NCBI GenBank assembly: GCA_001792115.1 | Contig: MGFX01000006.1 | Coordinates: 146,537 to 210,536, forward strand | DNA length: 64,000 bases | Direction of reading: 5' to 3' | From: Candidatus Woesebacteria bacterium RBG_16_42_24 | GTDB taxonomy: Bacteria; Patescibacteriota; Microgenomatia; UBA8517 | Shown here: piece by piece, positions 4,228 to 55,639 of the stretch | Layout: each line of letters begins with the position of its first letter | How positions within the stretch are numbered: the first letter of the stretch is position 1 | Made by a program: the position numbers and the translations under genes | Notes under the pieces: model-generated | Database searches by the model: none | What the model was told of the DNA's origin: nothing | The model's input: only the letters and a program-made list of their open reading frames with translations

Positions 4228-5091
4228 GTGATTATAAAAGGCAAAAAAGAATTTATTGACCAGATAACGAAATTCGACATAAAGACCAAATATGCAGTTG
4301 TAAAACCTAATTGGAAAAGTAACCATGAAGGCGAATTCACCGAGCCAGAAATACTTAGCTGGCTTTTTGAGGCTCTGCCAAACCAGAAAAAGATTGTCGT
4401 AGAAAGCTATACTCCCTGGAGAGGATTAAAATTTATTGAATCCGATTCTCATAAAGGAAAGGGAGTAACTCTTGATGGTGGTAAGGCTCACTGGGATTTC
4501 TACAAGGAGCAAGACCAGCATTTTTTAGGTACAACAGGAATAGGTAACGTATTAAAGAAACACAAAGTAGACTATATAAATATTACAAACGAAGTTTGGG
4601 GTGGAAAATGTATTGGTCCGGAGGTTATAAAAAAGGAAGTTACTGATAAGAAAGAAAGGATTACGTGGGAGGAGCTCTACTCCTATATACCTCAAAAACT
4701 TTATCAAATACGAAAATCGTCAACGCTAATCAGCTTGTCCAAAATTAAAATTGAGGAGGGTATCCAGGCAATCTATATTAGTATGTCAATAAAAAATCTT
4801 TTTGGACTTATTCCCCATCCATCTCGCTGGATACCTTTCCACGGAGAAAATCACGAGTCGGTATCAGAGGTAACGCGCGATATTTACACACTCTACACGC
4901 TTTTATTCGATAAGACCCTCTGGGTTGCTGAAGGCATTAAAACTTTAGTTAGAAATTATTGTGAGCCTCACCAAAAGGTGGTCGAAAATCAAAACTTATT
5001 ATTCGTTGGTCGGAGTGCAAAACAAGTTGATTCTGAAGCCTGCAAAATTCTTGGAATAGACCCCGCTAAGGTTCCCCATCTCCACTTATAA
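4228..5091 (+). CDS. Hypothetical protein, possibly DUF362-like
   Basis: 287 aa; N-terminal YAVVKPNW resembles the DUF362 start; otherwise unrecognised. Confidence 0.3.
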   Translation: MIIKGKKEFIDQITKFDIKTKYAVVKPNWKSNHEGEFTEPEILSWLFEALPNQKKIVVESYTPWRGLKFIESDSHKGKGVTLDGGKAHWDFYKEQDQHFLGTTGIGNVLKKHKVDYINITNEVWGGKCIGPEVIKKEVTDKKERITWEELYSYIPQKLYQIRKSSTLISLSKIKIEEGIQAIYISMSIKNLFGLIPHPSRWIPFHGENHESVSEVTRDIYTLYTLLFDKTLWVAEGIKTLVRNYCEPHQKVVENQNLLFVGRSAKQVDSEACKILGIDPAKVPHLHL

Positions 5092-5138: not shown

Positions 5139-5819
5139 TTATGCTAAGACATAATCCGCGTAAGCGATTGTAAGAAGCTCGTCTTCGACTATTTGCATCT
5201 CTGCAAGCCTTATGTCCTCTTCGCTGTACTCTTCATCTGGCCCGAGCTCTAAACGGTCTCTAACCATAAAATCTGTTGGTTTGTAGTGGTCTGGAAACAC
5301 GCGTTTTGCAACAAGAATGTCTTTCAGAAAAGCCGACCATTCCACCGTCTCACTACTTTGGGTCAAACTGCTTTTCTCGATGGAACCAACCTCTTTTGCC
5401 AAGTCTCTAAGTGGTTGAGGAATCCTATGCCACCCTGCGGGCTGCCTGCTATTTCGTATTACCTTTTCACCGCCGCCTAAATCTTTACCAATGAGTATTG
5501 TGGGGAAACCTCTGGCATTAACCGGAGTTAGAACAAACCCGACTGAAATTCCGCCGTCAGGCGTTTTGACGGAGAACTGCTTAGGATCTGTTTGCACAAT
5601 TCGAATTGCAAGGAGTTTGTTATCGATTGTCGGAATGGAGAAAAACTTTTCTCCCAAAACCCAGCCGCCAAACTGCCTAAAGTCGTAGCCCGGCCAGTCG
5701 CTAAAATCCCAATCACTACCTTCAGGTTCGGCTCCGGTAAGATAGTCCTTATTGGACATAATTTCACCAAGGATATCCGAAAACGAAAGCGTGGTTTCCT
5801 CTTCTTCTTTCCCTGCCAT
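5139..5819 (-). CDS. Hypothetical protein
   Basis: 226 aa ORF, acidic N-terminus, no recognisable motif. Confidence 0.4.
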   Translation of the reverse strand: MAGKEEEETTLSFSDILGEIMSNKDYLTGAEPEGSDWDFSDWPGYDFRQFGGWVLGEKFFSIPTIDNKLLAIRIVQTDPKQFSVKTPDGGISVGFVLTPVNARGFPTILIGKDLGGGEKVIRNSRQPAGWHRIPQPLRDLAKEVGSIEKSSLTQSSETVEWSAFLKDILVAKRVFPDHYKPTDFMVRDRLELGPDEEYSEEDIRLAEMQIVEDELLTIAYADYVLA

Positions 5820-5863
5820 ATATTTTTAGAAAAAGTGAGGGAAATTATAACATAAATAATTCG

Positions 5864-5886
5864 GAGGCCGCGCAGGAAATGGGGCC
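5864..5886 (+). repeat. Intergenic motif family 1 copy e (GGAGGCCGCGCAGGAAATGGGGCC), abuts stop of 5887..6165
   Basis: Full core flanked by GGCC arms; TTA stop follows directly. Confidence 0.7.
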
Positions 5887-6165
5887 TTATGCCGAAGATT
5901 GAATTTGGAGTTTCTTTTCAACTTTTGAAATTCTAGGTTCGTGATCTTCATAAACTTTATGAGTTAATATTTCCTGCCCTTCTCTTATTACCTTGAGCTC
6001 GCCCATTACCTCATCCATTTTTCCATAAAATTCATCTTTTGTTGGAAGGTGACTGATATCATCTTTAGTTGCGATTCTGTTTTCAATAGCATCATCCAAC
6101 CGTTCGTCAAATGTAACTTCCATTAAGTCTTTAATCGCCATGAGATCTTTGTTTGTAAGTGCCAT
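5887..6165 (-). CDS. Hypothetical small protein
   Basis: 92 aa, charged and helical, no known motif. Confidence 0.35.
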   Translation of the reverse strand: MALTNKDLMAIKDLMEVTFDERLDDAIENRIATKDDISHLPTKDEFYGKMDEVMGELKVIREGQEILTHKVYEDHEPRISKVEKKLQIQSSA

Positions 6166-6211
6166 AGCGCTATTTAACTATAGAACGCCTATTTCGTCAA
6201 GCAAAAGATAT

Positions 6212-6235
6212 GTGGCCCGCGCAGGAAATGGGGCC
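6212..6235 (+). repeat. Intergenic motif family 1 copy f (GTGGCCCGCGCAGGAAATGGGGCC)
   Basis: Full core with GGCCC/GGGCC arms in the divergent region between 5887..6165 and 6263..7255. Confidence 0.7.
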
Positions 6236-6262
6236 TCAATGTATCCAATTTGGTAAACTTAC

Positions 6263-7255
6263 TTGATGGATAAAAATATAAAGCCGGGTTACAAAAAATA
6301 TTTGGCTTCAATGCACGGAAAGTTTATTACCCCCGATGATGTGATTAGAGAGGTTGTAAAAGAGGGGGCTGGTAATTTGGTATCGAAAAAACGAATTATT
6401 GCAGGCGAAGTGAGTGAGGTATACAACATTATTTTAGAAAACAAAAAGCCCGTAATCCTTCGAATTTCAAGAAGTCCACGGCCAAACTTTCTTCAAGATA
6501 AGTGGGCAATGGAGCAAGTCAAAAAGCTGGGTGTTCCTGTTCCTGAAATCCTACTTATTAAATACCTAATTGTTGGGAATCAAGAACTTTCCTTTTGTTT
6601 AATGGAGAAAGCGGAAGGAAAATCACTCGAGAGGGGGGGCATAAATTTTGAATCGCTTCCCGAAGCAATAAGGAAATCGTATATCTTACAAGCTGGAGAA
6701 ATTCTATCCAAAATTCACTCCATTGAAACCCTAGGTTTTGGATGGATTATTGGAGAGGGAAAGGCGGAATACAACACCTCTGAAGAAATTATTGACGAAC
6801 TGTTAAAAAGAAAAGAGAGGATATATAAGGTCGCTGATGCTCAAAAGTTTGATCGACGGCTTGTCGACGAAGCCCTGGACATTGTAGGCAGATTCAGGGA
6901 AAGATATTCTCACATTAACCCCCACCTAAACCATGCAGACTACGGGCACAAGCACTTTATGGTAAAGAAGGGAAAAATTGTGGCTGTTTTGGATTGGGGT
7001 GGAGTACGAAGCGATTCACCAATATATGATTTCGCTAATTGGGATTATTGGTACGGGCATTACATTCCGACCAATTGGTTAAAAGAAGGCTACCAGAACA
7101 AACAACTATTTGACGAGAATTTTGAAGACACCCTTCACGTTATGAGAATCATGAAAGGGATAGAAATAGCCGATTGGTACGAGTCGCAAAACTATGGAGA
7201 GGCAGTTGAAAAAGCACTTGCCAAGTTGACCGATGACTTGAATTACTTCAAGTGA
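6263..7255 (+). CDS. Phosphotransferase-family protein (APH/choline-kinase-like fold)
   Basis: 330 aa; LNHADYGHKHFMV (Brenner-like HxD motif) and VLDWGG (DxG) arrangement of the APH/kinase-like family. Confidence 0.55.
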   Translation: MMDKNIKPGYKKYLASMHGKFITPDDVIREVVKEGAGNLVSKKRIIAGEVSEVYNIILENKKPVILRISRSPRPNFLQDKWAMEQVKKLGVPVPEILLIKYLIVGNQELSFCLMEKAEGKSLERGGINFESLPEAIRKSYILQAGEILSKIHSIETLGFGWIIGEGKAEYNTSEEIIDELLKRKERIYKVADAQKFDRRLVDEALDIVGRFRERYSHINPHLNHADYGHKHFMVKKGKIVAVLDWGGVRSDSPIYDFANWDYWYGHYIPTNWLKEGYQNKQLFDENFEDTLHVMRIMKGIEIADWYESQNYGEAVEKALAKLTDDLNYFK

Positions 7256-15196: not shown

Positions 15197-17197
<2,001 letters not shown>

Positions 17198-17317
17198 TTA
17201 TACCCCAAAATGAGGGTAAATGGAAGGAAAAAATCAGTATTCCGGTACTCCGGTATTCCAGTTTTCAGTTTATCGGTTTACCGGTTGACCAGTCTGACTG
17301 GACTACTGGAATACTGG

Positions 17318-17923
17318 TCAACTGATTCTTATAACAAAATTAGTAAGCTGCAAAAGGACATTTCCGTTGGCGTAAAGTGCATTAAGGACTTTAACAGCCT
17401 TTTTTAAATTCTGCGCGTTTTTTACCCAATCCCCATTTCCTTTTACGAGATCTTGGTGCCAGGAGGATATTAATTCATCCAAGAAATTTACGGCCTCCTC
17501 TCTTTTTTTAATGCTATCCACAAATAGTAATTTTTCTGGAGTCTTAAGTCTTAAGAATTCTGATACCTTTTCACTTTCCACTTTTAACTTTTTACTTTTC
17601 ACTCGTATAACCTGGCACCTCGATAAAATGGTGGGAAGGACCTTTTTGGAGGAGGTTGCAGAGAGAACATAATAGAGATTATCCTGAGGCTCCTCCAGAG
17701 CCTTCAAGAAGGCGTTTTGGGCCTCGATGGTCGCCTCATCTATACTCTTAATATATATAGCGCAAGGTCTATCTTGCGAGAGCCTGCTTATGCGAGAAAG
17801 GGCCCGGACATCTTCTATTTTTGCCAGTGGAAAGGGGGTTAGTTGGGCTTTAACCTTTTTTGATAGCTTCTCCACCTCTTTGACTAGGTCCGGGTCACTA
17901 CCTATTAGCAAAAATGAATGCAC
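17318..17923 (-). CDS. holB: DNA polymerase III delta-prime subunit-like clamp-loader protein
   Basis: 201 aa; AFLKALEEP and TILSRCQ motifs without Walker A. Confidence 0.55.
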   Translation of the reverse strand: MHSFLLIGSDPDLVKEVEKLSKKVKAQLTPFPLAKIEDVRALSRISRLSQDRPCAIYIKSIDEATIEAQNAFLKALEEPQDNLYYVLSATSSKKVLPTILSRCQVIRVKSKKLKVESEKVSEFLRLKTPEKLLFVDSIKKREEAVNFLDELISSWHQDLVKGNGDWVKNAQNLKKAVKVLNALYANGNVLLQLTNFVIRIS

Positions 17924-20845: not shown

Positions 20846-22057
20846 ATGCAAAGGTATAGATATAAAGCCAAGAATAGAAATGGGGACATAGTAGCCGGGG
20901 AGGTAGAAGCCTCCACCTCGCTTTTGGCCGCAAAACTCGTTCGTCAAAAAGGCTTGGTAGTTATTTCTATAACGCCTATATCAAAAGGCATACTGGATCT
21001 ATTTGCCAAAGTAAGAGACAACATTTCCTATGGAGACCTGGCTGTATTCACCAGACAGCTTGCAACCATGATCAACGCGGGCCTTCCTCTTACCGAGGCA
21101 CTACTTATATTAAGAGCTCAGTCAAAGCCCGCTTTACAAAAAATTGTTGCTCAGGTTTTGGCAGACGTTGAGGGCGGAACAGCTCTCTCCTCGGCTTTCG
21201 CTAAACACTCGAGGGTTTTTTCTCCCTCGTATATTGCCTTGGTACGCTCGGGTGAGGTAGGAGGACTTTTAGATACTGTTTTGGTAAGACTCGCCGACAA
21301 TATGGAAAAAGAGCAAGAGTTTAGAGGTAAGGTAAAGGGGGCACTCATTTACCCCGCAATTATTGTGGCCGGAATGTTTATTGTGGGGTTTATTATGATG
21401 GTCTTTGTCATCCCCAGACTTCTTAGCCTATACACGGAATTTGGCGCAAAAATTGAGCTTCCGTTTCCGACACGGGTGTTAATGTTTGTTTCTGGAGCAT
21501 TGTCGAAATTCTGGCCAATTCTTCTTATCTTAACCGGCGCGGCAATATATGGATATGGGTTATATAGAAAGTCCCCGAAAGGAAGAAGAAAAACCGATGA
21601 GCTTCTTTTTAAAATTCCTATTTGGGGGGAGCTTCAAAGACAAATTATATTAACCGAGCTAACCAGGACCCTTTCTTTGTTAGTTGGAGCGGGAGTTTCT
21701 ATTCTTGAGAGCTTGCAAATAACCTCTGAAGTTGTACCGAACGTAGTCATATCCGATGCCCTTAAAGACGTCTCCAAGCAGGTAGAAAAAGGATTTCCTG
21801 TCGCCTATTCTTTTGCCAAACACCCCGACGCTTTCCCTTTTATTCTCTCCCAGATGATCTCGGTCGGAGAGGAAACGGGGAAAATGGACGAGGTATTATC
21901 AAAAGTTTCCCACATTTTTGAAGTTGAGAGCGATCAAAAAGTTAAAACCCTAACCAGCTCAATCGAGCCTATAATTATGATTTTCCTCGGGGTCGGAGTC
22001 GGATTTTTGGTAGTAGCCATTATTTTGCCGATTTACAACCTGACGACCCAATTATAA
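20846..22057 (+). CDS. pilC: Type IV pilus platform protein PilC (GspF family)
   Basis: 403 aa; two T2SS-F repeats, 3 TM helices. Confidence 0.85.
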   Translation: MQRYRYKAKNRNGDIVAGEVEASTSLLAAKLVRQKGLVVISITPISKGILDLFAKVRDNISYGDLAVFTRQLATMINAGLPLTEALLILRAQSKPALQKIVAQVLADVEGGTALSSAFAKHSRVFSPSYIALVRSGEVGGLLDTVLVRLADNMEKEQEFRGKVKGALIYPAIIVAGMFIVGFIMMVFVIPRLLSLYTEFGAKIELPFPTRVLMFVSGALSKFWPILLILTGAAIYGYGLYRKSPKGRRKTDELLFKIPIWGELQRQIILTELTRTLSLLVGAGVSILESLQITSEVVPNVVISDALKDVSKQVEKGFPVAYSFAKHPDAFPFILSQMISVGEETGKMDEVLSKVSHIFEVESDQKVKTLTSSIEPIIMIFLGVGVGFLVVAIILPIYNLTTQL

Positions 22058-22255
22058 AGGATAGTAAAGATTGCTCGGAGAACGCCTTTCTCAAAAACAC
22101 TCGTCGAGTTAGTTCTCGTTCGGCAGTTTTGCCCACTCCTCACTTAGCGTCTCGCCAGCCCGAATTCTCTTACTAGATTTAGGCTCTTTCTGGGGCTGGT
22201 TCGACATATTTTTCGAAAGGGCCCTCCTCGCTCACTCGCTATTGGTATAGGGTAC

Positions 22256-22290
22256 TTGACAGGGGCGTAAACTTATTTGATACTGAATAT
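22256..22290 (+). promoter_or_regulatory. Candidate sigma70 promoter for the major pilin (TTGACA-17-GATACT) inside a 288-nt leader region
   Basis: TTGACAggggcgtaaacttatttGATACT read directly; strong SD GAGGGGGTG precedes the ATG at 22345. Confidence 0.4.
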
Positions 22291-22344
22291 AGACTACTTT
22301 TTGTTTCCTTTAAGAAGCGAGAGGGGGTGAAATTTGACTAAAAT

Positions 22345-22899
22345 ATGACTGCCCGATTTAAAGGTTTTACACTCGTAGAACTTCTTATTGTTATCGCAAT
22401 CATCGGAGTTTTGGCGGTTGTAGTTCTTATCGCCATTAACCCGGTGGAGCAATTAGCCAAAACCAGGGATGCGGGAAGAATTTCGACTGTCACCCAGCTT
22501 GGACACGCTGTACAGGCGTATTACACGTCACATGCAACCCAGACAGACCCATATCCTTTGGCGGCTACCTGGAACGCTGATTTGACGGCATCTGGAGAAC
22601 TTACCGTATTTCCGAGTGGAATAGCTTATACCGGAAGCCCTGACGTTTGTACTGAGAACGACGAACCTGGGACTGACGCAACCTACTGCTACGACTTGGA
22701 TTTATCAGGAGCAATACCTCCCGGGGCAATTGTTTACTCTCGATTGGAATCACTGAACCAGAACAACAAGTGTACTAGTCCGGATATAGCTTTTGTTCTA
22801 TTCTCAACTGCAGACGGACGTGGAGGAGTTGTGTGTGCTGCTGATGCACTCCCGGGAAGCATTAACCCACTAAACTCTGGACTCTTTGATTACAAGTAA
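22345..22899 (+). CDS. Type IV major pilin candidate (class III signal peptide)
   Basis: 184 aa; MTARFKG/FTLVELLIVIAIIGVLA prepilin leader and N-terminal helix. Confidence 0.85.
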   Translation: MTARFKGFTLVELLIVIAIIGVLAVVVLIAINPVEQLAKTRDAGRISTVTQLGHAVQAYYTSHATQTDPYPLAATWNADLTASGELTVFPSGIAYTGSPDVCTENDEPGTDATYCYDLDLSGAIPPGAIVYSRLESLNQNNKCTSPDIAFVLFSTADGRGGVVCAADALPGSINPLNSGLFDYK

Positions 22900-22981
22900 A
22901 GGTTGCTTGGCTAGGAGTTTATACGAAAGCGCCAGAAGAGCTACTTAAAGTATAAGTGGCAGCTGGCGCTAGCGTATTGAA

Positions 22982-23773
22982 ATGGAACTAATTTATACTT
23001 TTTTAGTCCTCATCTTGGGCCTAGCCGTGGGTTCATTCGTCTCGGCTCTCACCTATAGAGTCCCCAGGGGAATAAGTATTGCCAAGGGTCGCTCATTTTG
23101 CCCCAAATGCAGCGCCAAAATTTCCTGGTATGACAATATTCCCCTTCTCTCCTATTTGGCCTTAGGGGGAAAATGTAGGAGATGCAAAGAGAAAATTTCC
23201 CTGCGCTACCCCCTGATAGAGGGAGCGACTGCTCTCGGTTTCCTATACCTTTTTTCCTATAGCTGTCCCCCGGGAAGCTTTGAAGTAGCCTGTCTTTGGA
23301 AGAGTGCTACCGGAAGCCTTTATTTGCCATTTTTACTTTTTATTTTTACCTTAATGACGGCCATTTTCGTCATCGATTTGGAGAGTCAAATTATTCCTGA
23401 CAGCTTGGTTTTTACCCTTTTTATCTCAACTTTTCTAATTTTAATCAGCACAGACCTTCCAATCTTTACCCACCTTGTATCTGGATTTAGCGCGGCGCTT
23501 TTTCTTCTTGTTCTTTTTTTAATCACCAAACAAAAAGGAATGGGGTTGGGAGATGTTAAACTCGCCCTTTTTGCTGGGGCCTTTTTAGGATGGCCCCACA
23601 CGGTTACTTGGCTTTTTGCTAGTTTTGTACTTGGAGCAGTGGTGGGAGTTATCTTAATACTTCTTAAGAAAGCCTCTTTCGGAAAACACATTCCCTTCGG
23701 ACCCTTTTTGGTAGTATCCTTTTTTGTAAGCGTGTTTTTTGGAGAAAGGATTTTAGCCTGGTTAAATTTCTAA
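22982..23773 (+). CDS. pilD: Prepilin peptidase PilD (A24 family)
   Basis: 263 aa; tetra-Cys CPKC...CRRC zinc motif, polytopic, GLGDVKL catalytic region. Confidence 0.85.
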   Translation: MELIYTFLVLILGLAVGSFVSALTYRVPRGISIAKGRSFCPKCSAKISWYDNIPLLSYLALGGKCRRCKEKISLRYPLIEGATALGFLYLFSYSCPPGSFEVACLWKSATGSLYLPFLLFIFTLMTAIFVIDLESQIIPDSLVFTLFISTFLILISTDLPIFTHLVSGFSAALFLLVLFLITKQKGMGLGDVKLALFAGAFLGWPHTVTWLFASFVLGAVVGVILILLKKASFGKHIPFGPFLVVSFFVSVFFGERILAWLNF

Positions 23774-23780
23774 ATAAGGA

Positions 23781-24395
23781 ATGAAATTTTTCACTAAACA
23801 AGAACTGTTCGCGATTTTTGCCATTCTTCTTGTAATAATTTTAATCTCTCTTGCCAACTTTAAGGTTTCTTTAAGACGAGCCCGGGATGCCCAAAGAAAA
23901 AATGACATCGGGGCAATAGCAGACGGGCTTAATCGCTACGCAAATGATTTTGCCAAATATCCTCTCGCCTCCCCCGATGGGAAAATTTTAGCTTGTCGGC
24001 CGGTAATTTCTGAAGATAAAAACAAAAGAAAAATAGTCGAATTTGAACCTTGTGAATGGGAGAAAGACGCACTTGCCGACGCCCTGGACCCTACTTTCCC
24101 CAGCTATATCAAAAATTTGCCATCCGATCCACAAGACGATCTGGGCGTAAGCTATTTATATTTATCAAATGGAGCCAGATTTCAAATTTATGCGGTTCTT
24201 GAGGGAGTGGACGAGGACGAATATGACCCTAAAATAGTTGCCAGGAACTTAATGTGCGGGATAAGGATTTGTAATTTTGGCCGCTCAACAGGAGTTCCTC
24301 TTGATAAATCTATTGAAGAATACGAAAATGAATTAATAATAGAAAATTCCAAATTCCAACGACAAAGTCGGTTACTCTTTCCAAATGCCAAATAA
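23781..24395 (+). CDS. Pseudopilin / minor pilin-like protein (GspG-like helix)
   Basis: 204 aa; N-terminal hydrophobic helix then RARDAQRKNDIGAIADGL typical of T2SS/T4P pseudopilins. Confidence 0.65.
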   Translation: MKFFTKQELFAIFAILLVIILISLANFKVSLRRARDAQRKNDIGAIADGLNRYANDFAKYPLASPDGKILACRPVISEDKNKRKIVEFEPCEWEKDALADALDPTFPSYIKNLPSDPQDDLGVSYLYLSNGARFQIYAVLEGVDEDEYDPKIVARNLMCGIRICNFGRSTGVPLDKSIEEYENELIIENSKFQRQSRLLFPNAK

Positions 24396-24936
24396 ATATC
24401 AAAATTCTAAATTCATATTTGCTAGTTTGAAATATAAATTTAACTGGAAATTGGAAACTGGAAATTGGAAACTGGTTCGCGGTTTCACCTTAATAGAACT
24501 TTTGCTGGTTATATCTATTATCGGGATATTGGCCACATTCACCCTCTTTTATTATCCCTCAGCCCAAAAGCAGGCCAGAGACGCACAGAGAAGGTCGGAT
24601 ATTAAACAATACCAGACACTTCTTGAAACTTTTGCGGGAAGTAATAACAATCTTTATCCATCAAGAACTACCATTCGGCGCCCCGACGAGCTTTGCGGCA
24701 GCTGTGGTGCTGCTTGCCCCCTTGGACAGCTCAGTTGTCCCCGGGATCCTTCAAGTACTACTTATGAATATTCCTACCTAAGTAACGGGACAGGAAGCCC
24801 CAACAACACAGCAACGCAATATGTCTTGTGGACTACTTTAGAAAATATCCCCATTACAACTTATTGGATTGTTTGTTCCAGCGGAAGGACCGGTACCAGC
24901 ACAGTCGTTCCCCCTAATTCTGACTGCCCAATATGA
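24385..24936 (+). CDS. Pilin-like protein with prepilin leader ...WKLVRG/FTLIELLLVISIIGILA
   Basis: 183 aa; canonical GFTLIE motif; leader partly encoded by heptanucleotide repeats. Confidence 0.75.
   Translation: MPNKYQNSKFIFASLKYKFNWKLETGNWKLVRGFTLIELLLVISIIGILATFTLFYYPSAQKQARDAQRRSDIKQYQTLLETFAGSNNNLYPSRTTIRRPDELCGSCGAACPLGQLSCPRDPSSTTYEYSYLSNGTGSPNNTATQYVLWTTLENIPITTYWIVCSSGRTGTSTVVPPNSDCPI
24444..24475 (+). repeat. Heptanucleotide tandem repeat (YTGGAAA)x4 inside the leader-peptide coding region of 24385..24936
   Basis: ctggaaa ttggaaa ctggaaa ttggaaa ctgg read directly. Confidence 0.9.
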
Positions 24937-25442
24937 TTAACAGAAACTCAAAACTCAAAACTCAAAACTCAAAATTCCTGCGTGCGCAGGCAGGCAAAAC
25001 TAATTCTACATTCGGTTTTACCCTGATTGAGCTTCTCGTGGTTATATCGATAATTGCCGTTTTGGCCGGGATATCTATTTTCGGACTCCAGGGAGCCCGG
25101 GAGTCTGCAAGGGACGGTCGCAGGAAAGCCGACCTCGAACAAATTCGTGCCGGACTTGAATTATATAAGGCTGACTGCGGCGACTACCCGGCCACGTTAC
25201 CGCCCCCCCCAAATCCGCTTCTTGGAGATAATTCTCCTTCTTCTTGCTTGGCAACCAATACCTATATCTCAAGCGTTCCCGACGACCCCAACCCGGGGCG
25301 GGACTATAATTACGCAAGATTGACTTCTAGAACTTATGAACTTTGTTCAGCCCTTGAGAGAGTAACGTCGCCCAGTGTTTCTTGCGGCGGAGATTCCACC
25401 TGCGGTACGCCAGATTGTACTTATAAAGTAGTAAACCCCTAG
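24933..25442 (+). CDS. Pseudopilin-like protein (GspG-like), leader ...TNSTFG/FTLIELLVVISIIAVLAG
   Basis: 169 aa; GFTLIE motif; QGARESARDGRRKADL pseudopilin helix. Confidence 0.75.
   Translation: MINRNSKLKTQNSKFLRAQAGKTNSTFGFTLIELLVVISIIAVLAGISIFGLQGARESARDGRRKADLEQIRAGLELYKADCGDYPATLPPPPNPLLGDNSPSSCLATNTYISSVPDDPNPGRDYNYARLTSRTYELCSALERVTSPSVSCGGDSTCGTPDCTYKVVNP
24944..24964 (+). repeat. Heptanucleotide tandem repeat (AAACTCA)x3 at codons 4-11 of 24933..25442
   Basis: aaactca aaactca aaactca read directly, 9 nt after the ATG. Confidence 0.9.
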
Positions 25443-25453
25443 AGGACAAAATT

Positions 25454-25474
25454 TAATGACTAATGACTAATGAC
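25454..25474 (+). repeat. Heptanucleotide tandem repeat (TAATGAC)x3 creating three ATGs in three successive frames at the start of 25470..25958
   Basis: taatgac taatgac taatgac; SD AGAGGA at 25441-25446; only the third ATG (25470) is in frame with the pilin. Confidence 0.9.
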
Positions 25475-25958
25475 AAATGAAAGAAAAGGCTATACCCTTG
25501 TTGAAATTTTGGTAGTGATTTCCATCGTCGGCTTACTTTTTGGCGTAGGCTTCGTAAGTTATAGAGAGTTTTCGCGAAGACAAGCACTTGCCGGCGCTGC
25601 GCGGCAGGTTGGGGGCGACCTTAGGCTTGCACAGGAACTTGCCCTTGCCGGGAAAAAGCCAGCCGTTTGTGGAGCAAACGCCTTGGACGGGTACCAGTTC
25701 GTAGTCACCCCCCCCAATTCATACCGGGTCAGAGCCGTATGTAATCTTACTACGGCTATTGAGAAAACCGTTGTTGTCAGTTCCGGGGTGAGCATATCGG
25801 GCTTAGTCCCCGATCTTACTCCGTCCAACACGATTCTCTTTAAGACTTTGAGCGGGGGCACAAATATTCCCGCGGGTACAACAGTAATTACCCTTACCCA
25901 AGATGTAACTGCCGACACTCGTCGAATCACCGTAACTGCAGGAGGAGAAATACGATAA
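25470..25958 (+). CDS. Pseudopilin-like protein (GspH/FimT-like), leader MTNERKG/YTLVEILVVISIVGLL
   Basis: 162 aa; prepilin motif and N-terminal hydrophobic helix. Confidence 0.7.
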   Translation: MTNERKGYTLVEILVVISIVGLLFGVGFVSYREFSRRQALAGAARQVGGDLRLAQELALAGKKPAVCGANALDGYQFVVTPPNSYRVRAVCNLTTAIEKTVVVSSGVSISGLVPDLTPSNTILFKTLSGGTNIPAGTTVITLTQDVTADTRRITVTAGGEIR

Positions 25959-25959
25959 T

Positions 25960-25987
25960 AAACTCAAAACTCAAAACTCAAAACTCA
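25960..25987 (+). repeat. Heptanucleotide tandem repeat (AAACTCA)x4 directly after the stop of 25470..25958
   Basis: Four perfect units read directly. Confidence 0.9.
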
Positions 25988-25996
25988 AAATTATTT

Positions 25997-26017
25997 GGAA
26001 ACTGGAAACTGGAAACT
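25997..26017 (+). repeat. Heptanucleotide tandem repeat (GGAAACT)x3 upstream of / in frame with the 26039 pilin-like gene
   Basis: ggaaact x3 followed by ggaaatt; in-frame translation gives WKLETGN, as in the 24385 leader. Confidence 0.9.
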
Positions 26018-26038
26018 GGAAATTCCTCGCGAAGCGAG

Positions 26039-26467
26039 GTGGGTCAGTCTCTTTTTGAGGTAATTGTAGCCATCGGAGTTATCGCAGCAGTCATTGTGGG
26101 GGTTGTCGTTTTGGCCACGAATTCAATAAGAAATACTACTTTTACGCGAAATAATTCATTAGCAACCCGCTATGCCCAAGAGGCCATTGAGTGGTTGAGA
26201 GGAGAAAGGGACGCAGACTGGGCTACTTTTCGGGCTAATGCAGGGGTTTCCGGTAATAAGTATTGCCTCGATGCCCTTAACTGGACAAAGCCTCAAGCCT
26301 GTAATGCTACCGAAGTAATAAGCGATACTATACTTACCAGAAGTGTAACGTTTTCCAATATTCTTGCGACCCAAGTTAATGCTAACGTCACGGTCTCCTG
26401 GAACGATTCCCAAGGGGCGCACCAGGTGGCAACCAGCACTGTATACACCGATTGGAGGTCGAGGTAA
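26039..26467 (+). CDS. Pilin-like protein (GspI/PilV-like); apparent GTG start, may start upstream
   Basis: 142 aa; G/QSLFEVIVAIGVIAAV prepilin-type N-terminus; no upstream in-frame ATG. Confidence 0.6.
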   Translation: MGQSLFEVIVAIGVIAAVIVGVVVLATNSIRNTTFTRNNSLATRYAQEAIEWLRGERDADWATFRANAGVSGNKYCLDALNWTKPQACNATEVISDTILTRSVTFSNILATQVNANVTVSWNDSQGAHQVATSTVYTDWRSR

Positions 26468-26950
26468 ATGGGAAAAAGGGAAACTGGCGGCTTTTCGGTG
26501 ATTGAGATACTGGTTGTAGTTTTAGTATTTGTAACTCTTGCGGTTTTGGCCACCGAAAGCTTACTTCTTTCACTTAGGGGTTCAAAAAGGTCCGAGTCTT
26601 CAATCGGTGTTAGGGAGAACTTAAACTATGCGCTTTCGATTATGGAGAGACAATTGCACAATGCGGAGAGTATTACCCTTTGTACCCCGACAGAAATTAC
26701 CTATACTGATACCAACGCCCTGACTGCCAAGTTTTCCTGCGACCTTACTAATGGATTTGTAGCATCATCGTCTGCCCAGCTAACCTCAAGCGAAGTAAGA
26801 ATCACTGCCTGTAATTTTACTTGTACTACGGGAAGCGCGGGAATTCCAGCGTCCGTTTCAATTTCGCTTACGGCGGAGGACGCCGACTCGGGAGGCCTTG
26901 AACAGCAACAGGTAACCACCAATACCCAAATAATGCTCAGAACTTATTAG
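26468..26950 (+). CDS. Pseudopilin-like protein (GspJ/PilW-like), leader MGKRETG/GFSVIEILVVVLV
   Basis: 160 aa; GFSVIE prepilin motif. Confidence 0.7.
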   Translation: MGKRETGGFSVIEILVVVLVFVTLAVLATESLLLSLRGSKRSESSIGVRENLNYALSIMERQLHNAESITLCTPTEITYTDTNALTAKFSCDLTNGFVASSSAQLTSSEVRITACNFTCTTGSAGIPASVSISLTAEDADSGGLEQQQVTTNTQIMLRTY

Positions 26951-26994
26951 CTGGTGTTGACCTGGGTTTGTCCCATTGGTAAGATTAATTAGTA

Positions 26995-27900
26995 ATGATG
27001 AAAAACCTGTCCGGACCCCGAGAGAAGGGTCAAGCTCTTTTGGTAGTACTTCTTTCGATGGCCGTAATTCTAACTGTTGTACTCTCGATTATTTCCCGTT
27101 CTATAACCGATATTTCTCTGACTTCTTATTCAGAAGATGCTTTAAGAGCTTTCTCTGCAGCCGAGGCGGGAGTGGAGCGGGCTTTGATAGTCGGTACAGA
27201 CGTCAGCGAGGCAATTGGAGATGCATCCTTCATAGCAAACGTATCGGGGCTAGGAGAGGGCTCTAGCTTCTTCAATTATCCAGTCGAAATTTACTCTGGG
27301 GAGAGCGTTTATATTTGGTTCGTCTCCCATAATCCGACAACAGGTGCTCTGACTTGTTCGGGACAACCTTGTTTTACGGGAAATAGCGCAGAATTTTGTT
27401 GGGGAAAACCAGGCACGCCTCCTGATGATTCAAGTCCGGCAATAGAGGTTTCTTACTTGATAGATATGTCGCAGAGGGGCGTATTAAATGGAAATTTTGT
27501 AGACGCGCTTATTGGAAGGAGTGTTCATGATCCGAACTCCGGAAGACAATCAATTAACAAGTTTCAATTAGCTCAATCATCTGGGTGTAGTATGCCCGAT
27601 GGTACGAATTACGCTTTCACAAGCGGCAGCATTCCTTTGACGGGTATTCCTTGTTATCAAACTCCCGGGTGTATGCTAGCTGTTAGAGTCCGCTCGCTAT
27701 ACAATCCGGTTTCCAGCCCAAATCCAATAGGGATTAAGGTTGGGGGTGGACTTCTGCCAGCCCAAGGAAAATTAATCAAGTCTCAAGGGACCACTTCTTC
27801 CCAATCTTCGGTCAGGAAAATAGAAGCTTACAGGACATTCGGTGGGCCAGCGCCAATCTTTGACGCGACAGTATTCAGCCAGGGCAGTGTTAGCAAATAA
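26995..27900 (+). CDS. PilX/GspK-like minor pilin
   Basis: 301 aa; N-terminal GQALLVVLLSMAVILTVV hydrophobic segment; large Ser/Gly-rich periplasmic part. Confidence 0.55.
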   Translation: MMKNLSGPREKGQALLVVLLSMAVILTVVLSIISRSITDISLTSYSEDALRAFSAAEAGVERALIVGTDVSEAIGDASFIANVSGLGEGSSFFNYPVEIYSGESVYIWFVSHNPTTGALTCSGQPCFTGNSAEFCWGKPGTPPDDSSPAIEVSYLIDMSQRGVLNGNFVDALIGRSVHDPNSGRQSINKFQLAQSSGCSMPDGTNYAFTSGSIPLTGIPCYQTPGCMLAVRVRSLYNPVSSPNPIGIKVGGGLLPAQGKLIKSQGTTSSQSSVRKIEAYRTFGGPAPIFDATVFSQGSVSK

Positions 27901-27905
27901 TACAA

Positions 27906-28919
27906 ATGAGTGTTGGACTCGATATTGGCTCCAAAACAATCAAAATTGTCGAGCTAGCAAGGGACGCTAGCGGTTTTAAATTGCGTGGTTCGGGTGTAAT
28001 TGGCTATTCAGGCAATCCGCCAGAGCACGCTCAAGACGATAAGGAACTTGGTAGCCTTGCAACCGCTATTAAAAAACTGCATAGAGAGGCCAATATTTCC
28101 TCAAGAGAAATCGCCGTAGCACTTCCCGAACCGCAAGTTTTTACCCGGGCAATAAAATTTCCACCTTTAAATGACCAGGAGGTAGCTTCTGCGGTTAAAT
28201 GGGAGGCCGAACAATATATTCCCATTCCAGTGTCTGAAGCCGTAATTCAGCACCAGATACTGGAAAGAAGAGAAGCCGAGTCTCCCCCTGAAGTTTTGGT
28301 TCTATTGGTAGCCGCTCCGAAGGCGCTCATTGAGAAGTACATCAGAGTAATTGAATTGGCTGGGTTAAATGTGGTTGCGGTTGAAACCGAACTCATGGCA
28401 TTGGTGCGCGCACTCGCTCCACCAGATCAGACTGTGTTACTCGTTGATTTTGGTGCTCGCTCCACAGATATCGCTATAGCTAAAAATGGCCAACTTGCGT
28501 TCACCCGTTCAATTCCCACAGCGGGAGAAGCTTTCACCAGGGCCGTCGCACAGTCACTTGGAGTTCAGGTCGCCCAAGCAGAAGAATATAAAAGAGCCTA
28601 TGGGTTTTCGGAATCACAACTCGAGGGTAAAATTAAGAGCGCCCTCGATCCTGTATTTACAATAATTAATGAGGAAATTAAAAAAGCAATCCACTTCTAT
28701 CAAGCTGAGGAGAAGGGCGAGACTCCAAAGTCAGTAATCGTTTCGGGTGGAAGTTCGGGACTACCGGAAATGATTGGGGCAATGACCAGATCCCTCAATC
28801 TTGAGGTTGTAATCGGAAATCCCTTTGCAAAGGTGCTAGTTGACCCTGCGGTTGCAAAAACGGTAGCTCCTTATGCTCCGCTTTACCCTATTTCAGTAGG
28901 ACTGGCAATGAGGAGATAG
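27906..28919 (+). CDS. pilM: Type IV pilus assembly protein PilM (actin-like ATPase fold)
   Basis: 337 aa; MSVGLDIGSKTIKIVEL N-terminal actin-fold motif. Confidence 0.8.
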   Translation: MSVGLDIGSKTIKIVELARDASGFKLRGSGVIGYSGNPPEHAQDDKELGSLATAIKKLHREANISSREIAVALPEPQVFTRAIKFPPLNDQEVASAVKWEAEQYIPIPVSEAVIQHQILERREAESPPEVLVLLVAAPKALIEKYIRVIELAGLNVVAVETELMALVRALAPPDQTVLLVDFGARSTDIAIAKNGQLAFTRSIPTAGEAFTRAVAQSLGVQVAQAEEYKRAYGFSESQLEGKIKSALDPVFTIINEEIKKAIHFYQAEEKGETPKSVIVSGGSSGLPEMIGAMTRSLNLEVVIGNPFAKVLVDPAVAKTVAPYAPLYPISVGLAMRR

Positions 28920-49432: not shown

Positions 49433-49732
49433 CTTTGTGTTGGGTTTTGAATTGAGTCGCATTAAATTTCCCCTGTTGGCCTTTAGCCCCAAATTTGCTC
49501 TGTTTGAAAAAATCTGGAGTCCTAAAACCTAAAGAAGGTCCTGCTTTCTTCTTTACAAAGGAACTTTTCTGTTTCATATATCATAATTGTAAATTGTAAA
49601 TTGATAATTGTAAATTTATGTTTTATACTTTAATTGCCAAAGTGTGTTTAATGGATAGTCTTCGAGTAAGCTTCCGTTAATCCTCGAGGCGTTCGATGCT
49701 TTCAATCGTTAGAAAGGAGGTAATTAAAATAC

Positions 49733-54276: not shown

Positions 54277-54391
54277 AAATCGGTTTATCGGTTTCTCGGT
54301 TATCAGATATCGGTGGATCGGCTTGTCAGATTACAAAATCCGAAAATCCGAAAAACTGAAATCAGAAGACTGATGACCTGACAAACTGAAT

Positions 54392-55639
54392 ATGTTGGCT
54401 TTCAATCCCAAACCCTCAACCATAATGCACCTGGACCTTAATTCCTGTTTTGCGACGATTGAGCAACAGGCAAATCCGCAGCTTCGGGGCAAACCCATCG
54501 CGGTTGCCGCCTACACCACCCCATCCGGTTGCATCATTGCCCCTTCGGTTGAGGCCAAAAGATATGGGATCAAGGTCGGAATGAGGGTCAAAGACGGCAA
54601 ACTTCTCTATCCAGGCTTGATAGTTCTTTCTCCCGACCCATGGAAATATAGAAACGTACACCTTGCCCTTCGAAGAATCGTTTCCGATTATACCGACAAA
54701 TTTGTGCCGAAGAGTATTGATGAATTCGTTTTAGACCTAGAAGGATACCCCTGTTTAGTAGCAAGTAGTATGCAGCAAGTAGCAAGGGAGATTAAGGAGA
54801 GAATCAAGGAGGAGATCGGAGAATGGCTGACGGTTTCAGTGGGAATTGCCCCAAACAAATTTCTTGCCAAAACTGCAGCCTCCCTCCATAAACCCGACGG
54901 GTTGGATGAGATTGATAAAGAAAACTTTGCCAAAGTTTATTCGGGCCTTAAACTTACGGAGCTATGTGGGATAAAACTTCGAAACGCAGTTCGGCTAAAC
55001 AACATGGGCATATTTAGCGTTTTGGATTTCTTCGAGGCACCATATCCTAAGCTGAAGGCTGCCTTTGAATCGATCCTTGGATACTATTGGTATTTGCGCT
55101 TGCGAGGTTGGGAAATAGACGACGTTGTTTTTGGCAGACGCTCATATGGCAATTCTTTCGCCCTGCCTAGGCCATTAGTAACAGTTGAAGAGCTCTCTCC
55201 TGTTCTTTCTAAACTCGTTCAAAAAATGGGAGCAAGATTTAGGCGGGCTGGATATAAAGCCAAAGGAGTTCATTTGGCAATCGCCTACCGGGACGGAACA
55301 TTTTGGCACCAGGGAGTTACAACCACAAGAATCTTATTCGACAGCAGGGACATTTATAGAGTCGCATTTAGACTTCTTAATCGAAGTCCCTATAGAAAAG
55401 CTGTCAGGGAGCTCGCCGTATCGGTTTTTAACTTGATAGATGAGCCGTCTTTGCAGCTTGAACTATTTGACGACCTAAGGAAAAAGGAGCGAATAGTGAA
55501 TGCGGTCGATGCCGTAAATGAACGCTGGGGAGACTTTGTCATAACTCCAGCTCGCATGCTTGGAACTAAAAATGCCGTAATTGACAGAATCGCCTTTGGC
55601 GGAGTCAAGGAACTCGAGGAATTTACCCTTCGATATTAG
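54392..55639 (+). CDS. dinB: Y-family DNA polymerase IV
   Basis: 415 aa; MHLDLNSCFATIE (UmuC motif I), SVGIAPNKFLAK. Confidence 0.85.
   Translation: MLAFNPKPSTIMHLDLNSCFATIEQQANPQLRGKPIAVAAYTTPSGCIIAPSVEAKRYGIKVGMRVKDGKLLYPGLIVLSPDPWKYRNVHLALRRIVSDYTDKFVPKSIDEFVLDLEGYPCLVASSMQQVAREIKERIKEEIGEWLTVSVGIAPNKFLAKTAASLHKPDGLDEIDKENFAKVYSGLKLTELCGIKLRNAVRLNNMGIFSVLDFFEAPYPKLKAAFESILGYYWYLRLRGWEIDDVVFGRRSYGNSFALPRPLVTVEELSPVLSKLVQKMGARFRRAGYKAKGVHLAIAYRDGTFWHQGVTTTRILFDSRDIYRVAFRLLNRSPYRKAVRELAVSVFNLIDEPSLQLELFDDLRKKERIVNAVDAVNERWGDFVITPARMLGTKNAVIDRIAFGGVKELEEFTLRY

Follow-up and report, generated by a model that had tools for sequence, protein, structure and literature searches.

Are the short tandem repeats that front four adjacent pilin genes in a bacterium of the Candidate Phyla Radiation (CPR) genetic switches, or are they by-products of a replication slippage that happens to be tolerated there? 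The genes lie in a 64,000-nucleotide (nt) stretch of contig MGFX01000006.1, referred to below as the window, from an uncultured groundwater member of Candidatus Woesebacteria (Microgenomates, within the CPR). CPR bacteria, Woesebacteria among them, have very small genomes and a presumed dependence on other cells, and type IV pili are the leading candidates for the means by which they attach and take up DNA. The window contains a complete cluster of type IV pilus genes at 18.0–30.1 kb. Within this cluster, five perfect or near-perfect 7-nt arrays lie between 24442 and 26022, at the 5' ends of the consecutive genes g1 to g4 (Table 1). We find that such arrays are a lineage-wide trait of Woesebacteria minor pilins, and we consider it slightly better than an even bet (probability of about 0.55) that they are low-rate, contingency-type hypermutable sites that are held ON by selection in the sampled populations.

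Heptanucleotide arrays at the 5' ends of g1 to g4

The first-pass annotation of this DNA had described heptamer arrays at the 5' ends of four adjacent pilin genes, and all of them were found where it placed them. Its identification of the four genes as minor pilins within a set of type IV pilus genes also holds, with N_methyl, T2SSG and GspH motifs, the prepilin peptidase PilD and PilM in agreement. As expected of type IV pilins or pseudopilins with a class III signal peptide, they show the N-terminal motif G/(F/Y/Q)xxxE (a slash marks the cleavage site here and below) before a hydrophobic helix, and a prepilin peptidase is encoded nearby. The family PF07963 matches g1, g2 and g3, and g4 carries the motif G/QSLFEVIVAIG with no Pfam match. 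Among the arrays are the only perfect repeats of period 7 or 8 with at least three copies in the 64 kb of the window, and 100 second-order Markov simulations of the window produced no such array. Nine contigs from ENA, the Joint Genome Institute (JGI) and Logan, derived from different samples and assemblers, are 99.96–100% identical across every array that they cover. Because these nine contigs agree, the arrays are not assembly artefacts. All comparisons reported here are between consensus assemblies, in which read-level minority variants are invisible.

The g2 array is present but longer than the three copies over codons 4–11 that were first annotated (Table 1). It is translated (NSKLKTQNSK), because the sole in-frame ATG, GTG or TTG of the gene, the ATG at 24933 that overlaps the g1 stop, lies 5' of the array; none of these codons occurs between the array and the cleavage site. 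About ten relatives, like g2, have no alternative start between an array and the cleavage glycine. The ATG of g1 overlaps the end of g0, and two in-frame TTGs, one 5' of the array (24427) and one within it (24451), are possible alternative starts.

Frame logic was simulated by adding units to or removing them from the arrays of g1, g2 and g4, the last read from an ATA codon discussed below. A change of one or two units in either direction truncates the products of the three genes to 18–75 amino acids (aa), with 33–75 aa for g1 and 18–35 aa for g2, and a change of three units restores the full protein. The claim that gain or loss of a unit shifts the frame at g1 and g2 is thus borne out. At g1 and g2 a repeat whose period is not a multiple of three thus follows the start codon and precedes the functional portion of the reading frame; at g4 it does so only if translation begins at ATA 25955. 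In g3 the array instead precedes or contains the start codon. The units internal to leaders contain no stop codons, whereas the TAATGAC unit that overlaps the g3 start does.

For g4, the first-pass annotation had both upstream arrays in frame with a start at 26039. The frame is indeed open back to 25844, but being in frame is nearly trivial, because three copies of a 7-nt unit yield one and the same heptapeptide whichever frame is read. The shared frame of g2 and g4 was dropped as an argument on the same ground; only the register counts, and that would agree by chance in one case out of three. After the g3 stop, the first canonical start to be met is the GTG at 26039, which lies two codons 5' of the cleavage site and lacks a Shine-Dalgarno sequence. 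Relatives carry starts at the position where the window has ATA ATA, namely ATG ATG in L113 and GTG in L091 and L027 (L-numbers label related loci and contigs). The locus L022 (~7019–7065) likewise has ATA ATA, followed by a heptamer array. In both the window and L022 this sequence arose because the g3 stop TGATGA became TAATAA. The upstream GGAGGAG encodes the C-terminal GGE of g3. Nearly all of 69 g4 homologues have short canonical leaders, such as MKK/GQSLFE. It is possible that g4 is initiated at AUA, by termination-reinitiation, or from GTG 26039 with a two-residue leader, or that it is a silent gene.

Leader arrays across Woesebacteria pilus loci

A PilM scan of species-representative genomes yielded 80 Woesebacteria pilus loci, 1.39 Mb in total. 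Perfect arrays with at least three copies in these loci have period 7 in 14 of 18 cases, with units that all differ, and about ten of them are flanked by a start codon on the 5' side and a prepilin cleavage motif on the 3' side. We then ran Tandem Repeats Finder (TRF) on all loci together with the window (1.456 Mb) and defined leader windows as the 100 nt 5' of prepilin cleavage sites, which make up 3.1% of this sequence. Leader windows contain 19 of the 30 period-7 arrays (binomial p = 8.5e-22), one of nine period-8 arrays, and none of ten arrays of period 6, 9 or 12 (Fisher p = 5e-4 for period 7 against periods divisible by three). Relative to sequence length, leader windows are about 50-fold richer in period-7 arrays than the remaining DNA. 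Period 7 accounts for 30 of the 50 arrays overall, and outside leaders it is still the commonest (11 of 30).

Arrays occur in orthologues of g1, g2, g4, g5 and g6 and in g0-type pilins. Among the 415 prepilin-like genes surveyed, most have ordinary leaders of 3–12 residues, and the major pilins have no arrays. Leader arrays are thus a lineage-wide trait of Woesebacteria minor pilins. Paralogues of one genome have units in common in the case of g2 and g4 of the window, genes 1 and 2 of L091, and three genes of L030.

Several of these leaders show further peculiarities. The three L030 paralogues have GAATACC-type (NTEYRIP-like) leader arrays at differing stages of decay, and in the same locus (5508–6656) two pilin genes are fused into a 382-aa open reading frame (ORF). 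In the leaders of many proteins a decoy cleavage motif is followed by an inverted copy, for example MKITKRGFTLIRTIRKNLVSVK/AFTLIELL (among the loci concerned are L066 6473–6560, L045 7554–7620, L034 5651–5740, and L024 6342–6460). The cleavage site of L066 falls within a perfect palindrome of 24 nt, TCAGTGTGAAAGCTTTCACACTGA, and a 16-nt direct repeat covers both the decoy and the real cleavage motif in L034. GC-rich inverted-repeat segments like those of g2 and g4 (Table 1) are also found in leaders of L027 (~6070–6110) and L091 (~540–590); the g2 segment belongs to a 36-nt leader stretch that has no counterpart in the L113 orthologue. In the distant relative L085, the PilD gene itself has two perfect in-frame arrays, TATTCAT ×4.1 (4738–4766) and CATCAAT ×5 (4903–4937), both of which fall in poorly conserved membrane segments.

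The arrays differ between close relatives, in three independent cases. In one population from Rifle, of the RIFOXYB1_FULL_40_26 type, the g1 orthologue has two alleles that are exactly 21 nt, and thus in frame, apart: a 2-copy allele (AAATTTC ×1 + AAATTTT; L091–L094 and L096) and a 5-copy allele (AAATTTC ×4 + AAATTTT; L095 and L107–L112). Only about 16 other sites are variable in 3.4 kb, and each allele is found on both backgrounds of a nearby amino-acid polymorphism. Four scaffolds from four samples break at the AAATTTC array with a 100-N gap. Left of the gap, L103 has the 2-copy form and L104 and L106 have the 5-copy form, and in L105 the gap begins inside the array. Such breaks suggest that the two alleles coexist within samples.

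Other pairs differ in array sequence. L097 and L098 differ in 22 of 3465 aligned columns, 21 of which fall in one pilin leader array, where a perfect AATCTCA ×4–5 array replaces a degenerate ACTAAGT-type array that is shared with more distant relatives. Between L115 and L116 there are about 35 differences per 100 nt in a leader and its upstream spacer, compared with 1–6 per 100 nt elsewhere, and in protein clusters at 90% identity there are mature pilins that are nearly identical and have entirely different leaders. Of the relatives with an array-like g2 leader, L113 is the closest, and its orthologous site carries a degenerate array of the AAACTC type; therefore the AAACTC unit family is old and the copy in the window is freshly homogenised. 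Leader arrays are born, homogenised, shared among paralogues, replaced and decayed much faster than the flanking DNA.

Larger rearrangements were seen in the same loci. Within one population, some contigs have and others lack an entire pilin gene (187 aa) that is flanked by a direct repeat of about 50 nt (L107–L110 vs L111–L112, locus positions 1–720), and the downstream pilin shows mosaic haplotype blocks. Compared with L091, all DNA 5' of the G/FTLIE codons in L090 (1–1000) is replaced by the end of pilC and a different promoter and leader. This leader variant (P0125) may be a recombinant or an assembly chimera and was excluded as evidence.

Switching, tolerated slippage or translation tuning

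In the reading that we favor, the arrays would be heptanucleotide microsatellites generated by replication slippage. They would occupy a segment of the minor pilins that is translated and then discarded, as the leader is removed by PilD. Where a start codon precedes the array, as at g1, at g2 and, given initiation at ATA 25955, at g4, the array is read as a hydrophilic, lysine-rich heptapeptide repeat before a G/FTLIE-type cleavage site. One or two units gained or lost would cause a frameshift and abolish that pilin, and three units (21 nt, 7 aa) would merely make the discarded leader longer or shorter, a phenotypically silent change. The growth of the arrays very probably passed through frameshifted states; stepwise growth from 1–2 to 4–5 copies crosses such states, and OFF states would therefore be at least survivable. 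The anatomy of the arrays, their enrichment in leaders, the polymorphism in copy number and sequence among relatives and the in-frame state of every allele are observed, whereas slippage as the mechanism, actual OFF states and any adaptive value are presumed.

A number of observations weigh against this reading. The first-pass annotation held that the arrays switch genes on and off, and that claim is not supported by the consensus sequences, as no out-of-frame allele was found anywhere. All of the 12 arrays that could be judged from a canonical start to the cleavage site are in frame and none is OFF, an outcome with a probability of (1/3)^12 = 1.9e-6 under random phase. Two apparent OFF alleles (P0146 and P0151; 138 aa, starting with MVISIIG) were rejected, since they come from scaffolds with a 100-N gap at the array. 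ON and OFF genotypes, the pair that characterizes phase variation of the neuO type (see below), were not found together at the consensus level. The polymorphic population has no 3- or 4-copy allele in about 30 contig records (consensus only). Variation in repeat number between strains was found among related Woesebacteria, but the arrays of this genome are identical in all nine assemblies, and the protein clusters of g1, g2 and g4 at 90% identity contain no length variants. An elevated switching rate has indirect evidence on its side, in that the differences within the near-identical pairs L097 and L098, and L115 and L116, are concentrated in the arrays. The change from two to five copies and the array replacements could also reflect gene conversion from paralogous leaders instead of stepwise slippage. 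At g4, the frame argument needs an ATA start, as no canonical start lies 5' of the arrays.

The intrinsic mutability of the arrays would be weak, as copy numbers are 3–5, at the lower threshold used for heptanucleotide simple sequence repeats (SSRs) (PMC2651432). In many bacteria heptanucleotides are the commonest longer simple repeats, and the way in which polymerase slips has been given as the cause (Mrazek et al., 2007, in the summary of PMC4679880). We therefore dropped period 7 as proof of selection for frameshifting, given that it is a general polymerase-slippage bias. Of the proposal that the locus has the hallmark architecture of contingency loci, what stands is that the architecture fits at g1 and g2, but the period that was taken as part of it is a widespread bias. 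Membership among phase-variable loci is not established, and fast-switch behaviour is absent.

The alternative that survives best, although we judge it rather unlikely, is that the arrays are a tolerated by-product of this 7-nt slippage bias. The leader would be almost unconstrained, selection would purge out-of-frame variants, and only net three-unit changes or conversions between paralogues would ever become visible. Such a process would explain why every allele is in frame and why the sole copy-number polymorphism is a three-unit difference. It fits equally with the decayed 'fossil' arrays held by many leaders, the low copy numbers, the known slippage bias toward period 7 and the prevalence of that period outside leaders. 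However, unselected slippage predicts more intergenic arrays than are implied by the roughly 50-fold concentration of period-7 arrays in leader windows. It also predicts more leader arrays with periods divisible by three, and these account for 10 of the 30 arrays elsewhere and for none in leaders. Moreover, stepwise growth must cross frameshifted states, and the L085 arrays lie inside the PilD gene, which is not a discarded segment.

A second alternative is that the arrays tune translation. A-rich, unstructured repeats would keep the initiation region of internally coupled genes unfolded, copy number would act as a rheostat and not as a switch, and leader length or the distance from Shine-Dalgarno to ATG would set the amount of a minor pilin or the speed of its processing by PilD. 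For g3 specifically, this is probably the right reading. Its array places ATGs at 25456, 25463 and 25470, in three different frames, of which the third is the start of g3. The sequence AGAGGA lies 9 nt 5' of the first ATG, from which a mini-ORF (MTND) runs to a TAA that shares bases with the true g3 ATG (TAATG). This anatomy agrees with the first-pass proposal that the TAATGAC array sets translational efficiency and not frame. The g3 array duplicates the start codon itself, so that copy number leaves the frame unchanged; with each TAATGAC unit the distance from the ribosome-binding site to the true ATG grows by 7 nt and a decoy ATG is added. Thus, only Shine-Dalgarno spacing and the number of decoy ATGs are altered, with one copy giving an ideal 9-nt spacing and three giving the TAATG stop-start overlap. 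A TGAATTA array in L047 likewise duplicates an ATG. A metagenome scan with g3 recovered only three distant loci, which had no useful arrays.

As an account of the arrays in general, translation tuning is improbable. Most units are A-rich and G-poor, but GAATACC, TACAGAC and TGGAAAC are not A-rich. The RNAs of the g2 and g3 arrays fold worse than shuffled sequences (z = +0.7 and +1.0), but these scores are not significant. Both g1 and g2 lack a Shine-Dalgarno sequence and overlap the upstream gene, which would suit such a mechanism, but an unstructured or lysine-rich leader needs no perfect DNA repeats, and most homologues function with leaders of 3–10 aa. Candidate regulatory elements were also considered and rejected. 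Rfam gave no match at E<=1 in 22000–28000, fold z-scores ranged from -1.7 to +1.0, and promoter- and terminator-like sites are at chance level, so that an RNA element, a terminator and a promoter were discarded for lack of a match, a signal above chance or a stable fold. CsrA-type GGA sites were dropped because GGA is in only two units.

Very improbable, finally, is that the arrays serve as recombination substrates, homology patches that would reshuffle mature pilins behind different starts and leaders. In its favor, the AAACTCA arrays of g2 and g4, each of 31 nt, agree in sequence and register, so that exchange between them would place g4 in frame behind the g2 leader (g2-leader::g4) and its proper ATG. 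Units are also common to paralogues in three genomes, and there is gene presence/absence in clusters and a possible leader swap in L090. On the other side, a shared register is expected by chance in one case out of three, RecA-dependent exchange normally needs more than 31 nt, no array-to-array recombinant was observed, and L090 may be an assembly chimera. The corresponding g1-leader::g4 recombination was set aside, being out of frame in the register examined.

Returning to contingency-type sites held ON by selection, we can tentatively extend this reading, with more doubt than confidence, to a 'pilus phasome': microsatellites in the leaders of several minor pilins, and occasionally in PilD, would act as independent frameshift switches, exchanged among paralogues, in Woesebacteria and perhaps other CPR. 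If so, a clonal population of these host-dependent cells would keep generating pilus-tip variants for different hosts or for escape from pilus-binding phages, the placement of the switch in a discarded leader would make in-frame length drift cost-free, and this would be the first contingency-locus system described in CPR. More broadly, a hypermutable site fronting nearly every minor-pilin class would provide cheap variation of the pilus tip without extra genes, and if the favored reading is true, localised hypermutation of a surface structure would have its first indication in CPR. Even if neutral, the pattern strongly marks where slippage products are tolerated. There is also a practical consequence: the arrays interrupt assemblies and, in metagenome-assembled genomes, lead to misplaced start codons and to genes called as truncated, as in the '138-aa' artefacts.

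The pilus cluster and known repeat systems

The genes of the cluster and the repeats within it are listed in Table 1. A protein identical to g2 is filed under Candidatus Woesebacteria bacterium RBG_19FT_COMBO_42_9.

Table 1. Pilus genes and repeat features of the window (positions in the window; a slash marks the prepilin cleavage site)
Feature	Position	Strand	Remarks
pilB, pilT, pilC	within the 18.0–30.1 kb cluster		
pilM, pilN, pilO	within the 18.0–30.1 kb cluster		
Major pilin	starts 22345		
Prepilin peptidase PilD	22982–23773		PF06750 + PF01478; ends 0.6 kb 5' of g1
g0, degenerate pilin-like gene	starts 23781		
AAATTCC ×2.3, short/decayed heptamer array	24344–24359	+	3' end of g0, just 5' of the g1 start; TRF
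g1, minor pilin	24385–24936	+	N_methyl motif; leader MPNKYQNSKFIFASLKYKFNWKLETGNWKLVR/GFTLIELL, 32 residues
AACTGGA/AATTGGA, alternating	24442–24475	+	Period 7 ×4.9 or perfect 14-mer ×2.4; leader-coding region of g1
g2, GspG-like minor pilin	24933–25442	+	Leader MINRNSKLKTQNSKFLRAQAGKTNSTF/GFTLIELL, 27 residues
AAACTCA ×4.4, perfect	24944–24974	+	About codons 4–14 of g2; reads NSKLKTQNSK
GC-rich inverted repeat CCTGCG tg CGCAGG	24977–24994	+	Directly 3' of the g2 array, in the leader-coding region
TAATGAC ×3 perfect + 1 imperfect	25454–25480	+	Spans the g3 start
g3, GspH/FimT-like minor pilin	25470–25958	+	Short leader MTNERK/GYTLVEIL
ATA ATA	25955–25960	+	Where relatives start g4; 7 nt after GGAGGAG, overlapping the g3 stop
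AAACTCA ×4.4, perfect	25960–25990	+	Same sequence as the g2 array; 3' of the g3 stop and 5' of the codons for mature g4
TGGAAAC ×3.9, perfect	25996–26022	+	Unit family in common with the g1 array
Inverted repeat CCTCGC gaa GCGAGG	26024–26038		Directly 3' of the TGGAAAC array
g4, PilV-like minor pilin	26039–26467	+	V/GQSLFEVIVAIG
g5, minor pilin	starts 26468		
g6, PilX-like	starts 26995		

The window also contains degenerate arrays away from the pilins. An intergenic period-7 array (AATTGTA ×4.6) lies at 49585–49616, and CTTTTCA ×5.3 (83% matches) lies within a holB-like ORF at 17540–17603. Three abutting degenerate 8-nt arrays (GTATTCCG, GTTTACCG and ACTGGAAT), with overall dyad symmetry, occupy 17237–17317, between the holB-like gene (17318–17923, minus strand) and the start of gyrB (15197–17161, minus strand). 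At 54279–54361, the 8-nt array ATCGGTTT is followed by AAAATCCG, directly 5' of a Y-family (ImpB/DinB-type) polymerase gene at 54392–55639.

Full-text searches found no paper on SSR contingency loci, or on repeats within prepilin leaders, in CPR or Patescibacteria, with incomplete coverage that makes this weak evidence of novelty. Elsewhere in Bacteria, heptanucleotide repeats near gene starts take several forms. In Haemophilus influenzae, a heptanucleotide SSR modulates expression of the adhesins encoded by hmw1A and hmw2A (PMC2651432). Unlike the leader arrays, these are promoter repeats of 13–38 copies, some 100 bp upstream, and they act on transcription.

The TAATGAC array of g3 resembles the TAACTGA direct repeats that adjoin start codons. 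These occur 5' of starts in Beggiatoaceae, Cyanobacteria and Bacteroidetes in 2–6 copies, with indels in 7-nt steps between related strains and a unit that carries stop codons, and a role in translation initiation has been proposed for them (PMC4679880). The TAACTGA family consists of one conserved non-coding unit at about 170 sites genome-wide, whereas here each gene has its own unit and most arrays are coding. We rejected membership of the window arrays in this family, as the 64-kb window has no tandem copy of TAACTGA and units differ from gene to gene. The survey of Mrazek et al. (2007) on long simple repeats with units of 5–11 nt in prokaryotic genomes, as far as it is summarised in PMC4679880, found heptanucleotides to be the most abundant class in repeat-rich genomes, as they are here; what it describes is a genome-wide property, in contrast to the roughly 50-fold concentration in one gene segment of one system seen here.

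A closer parallel is neuO of the Escherichia coli K1 prophage CUS-3, in which AAGACTC repeats in the 5' coding region undergo slipped-strand mispairing; copy number ranges from 3 to 53, an OFF form is found in about 66% of the genomes sequenced, and cultures contain measurable minority lengths (PMC13001214). As in neuO, a 7-nt unit in the 5' coding region is read as a heptapeptide repeat and the full-length protein is made only in frame. The pilin arrays differ in having 3–5 copies with every allele in frame, in lying in a leader that is cut off, whereas the neuO repeat stays in the mature enzyme, and in fronting several paralogues of one operon and not a single gene.

The pilC gene of Neisseria, which encodes a pilus accessory protein, is the counterpart within type IV pili. 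It is said to vary in phase through a poly-G tract in the signal-peptide coding region, so that a pilus-associated adhesin is switched by frameshift. The likeness lies in a simple repeat placed in the signal-peptide-coding part of a type IV pilus gene. In pilC, however, the repeat is reportedly a homopolymer tract, the signal peptide of the Sec type and ON/OFF switching well documented, whereas in the Woesebacteria genes the repeat is a heptamer and the segment that carries it is a prepilin leader.

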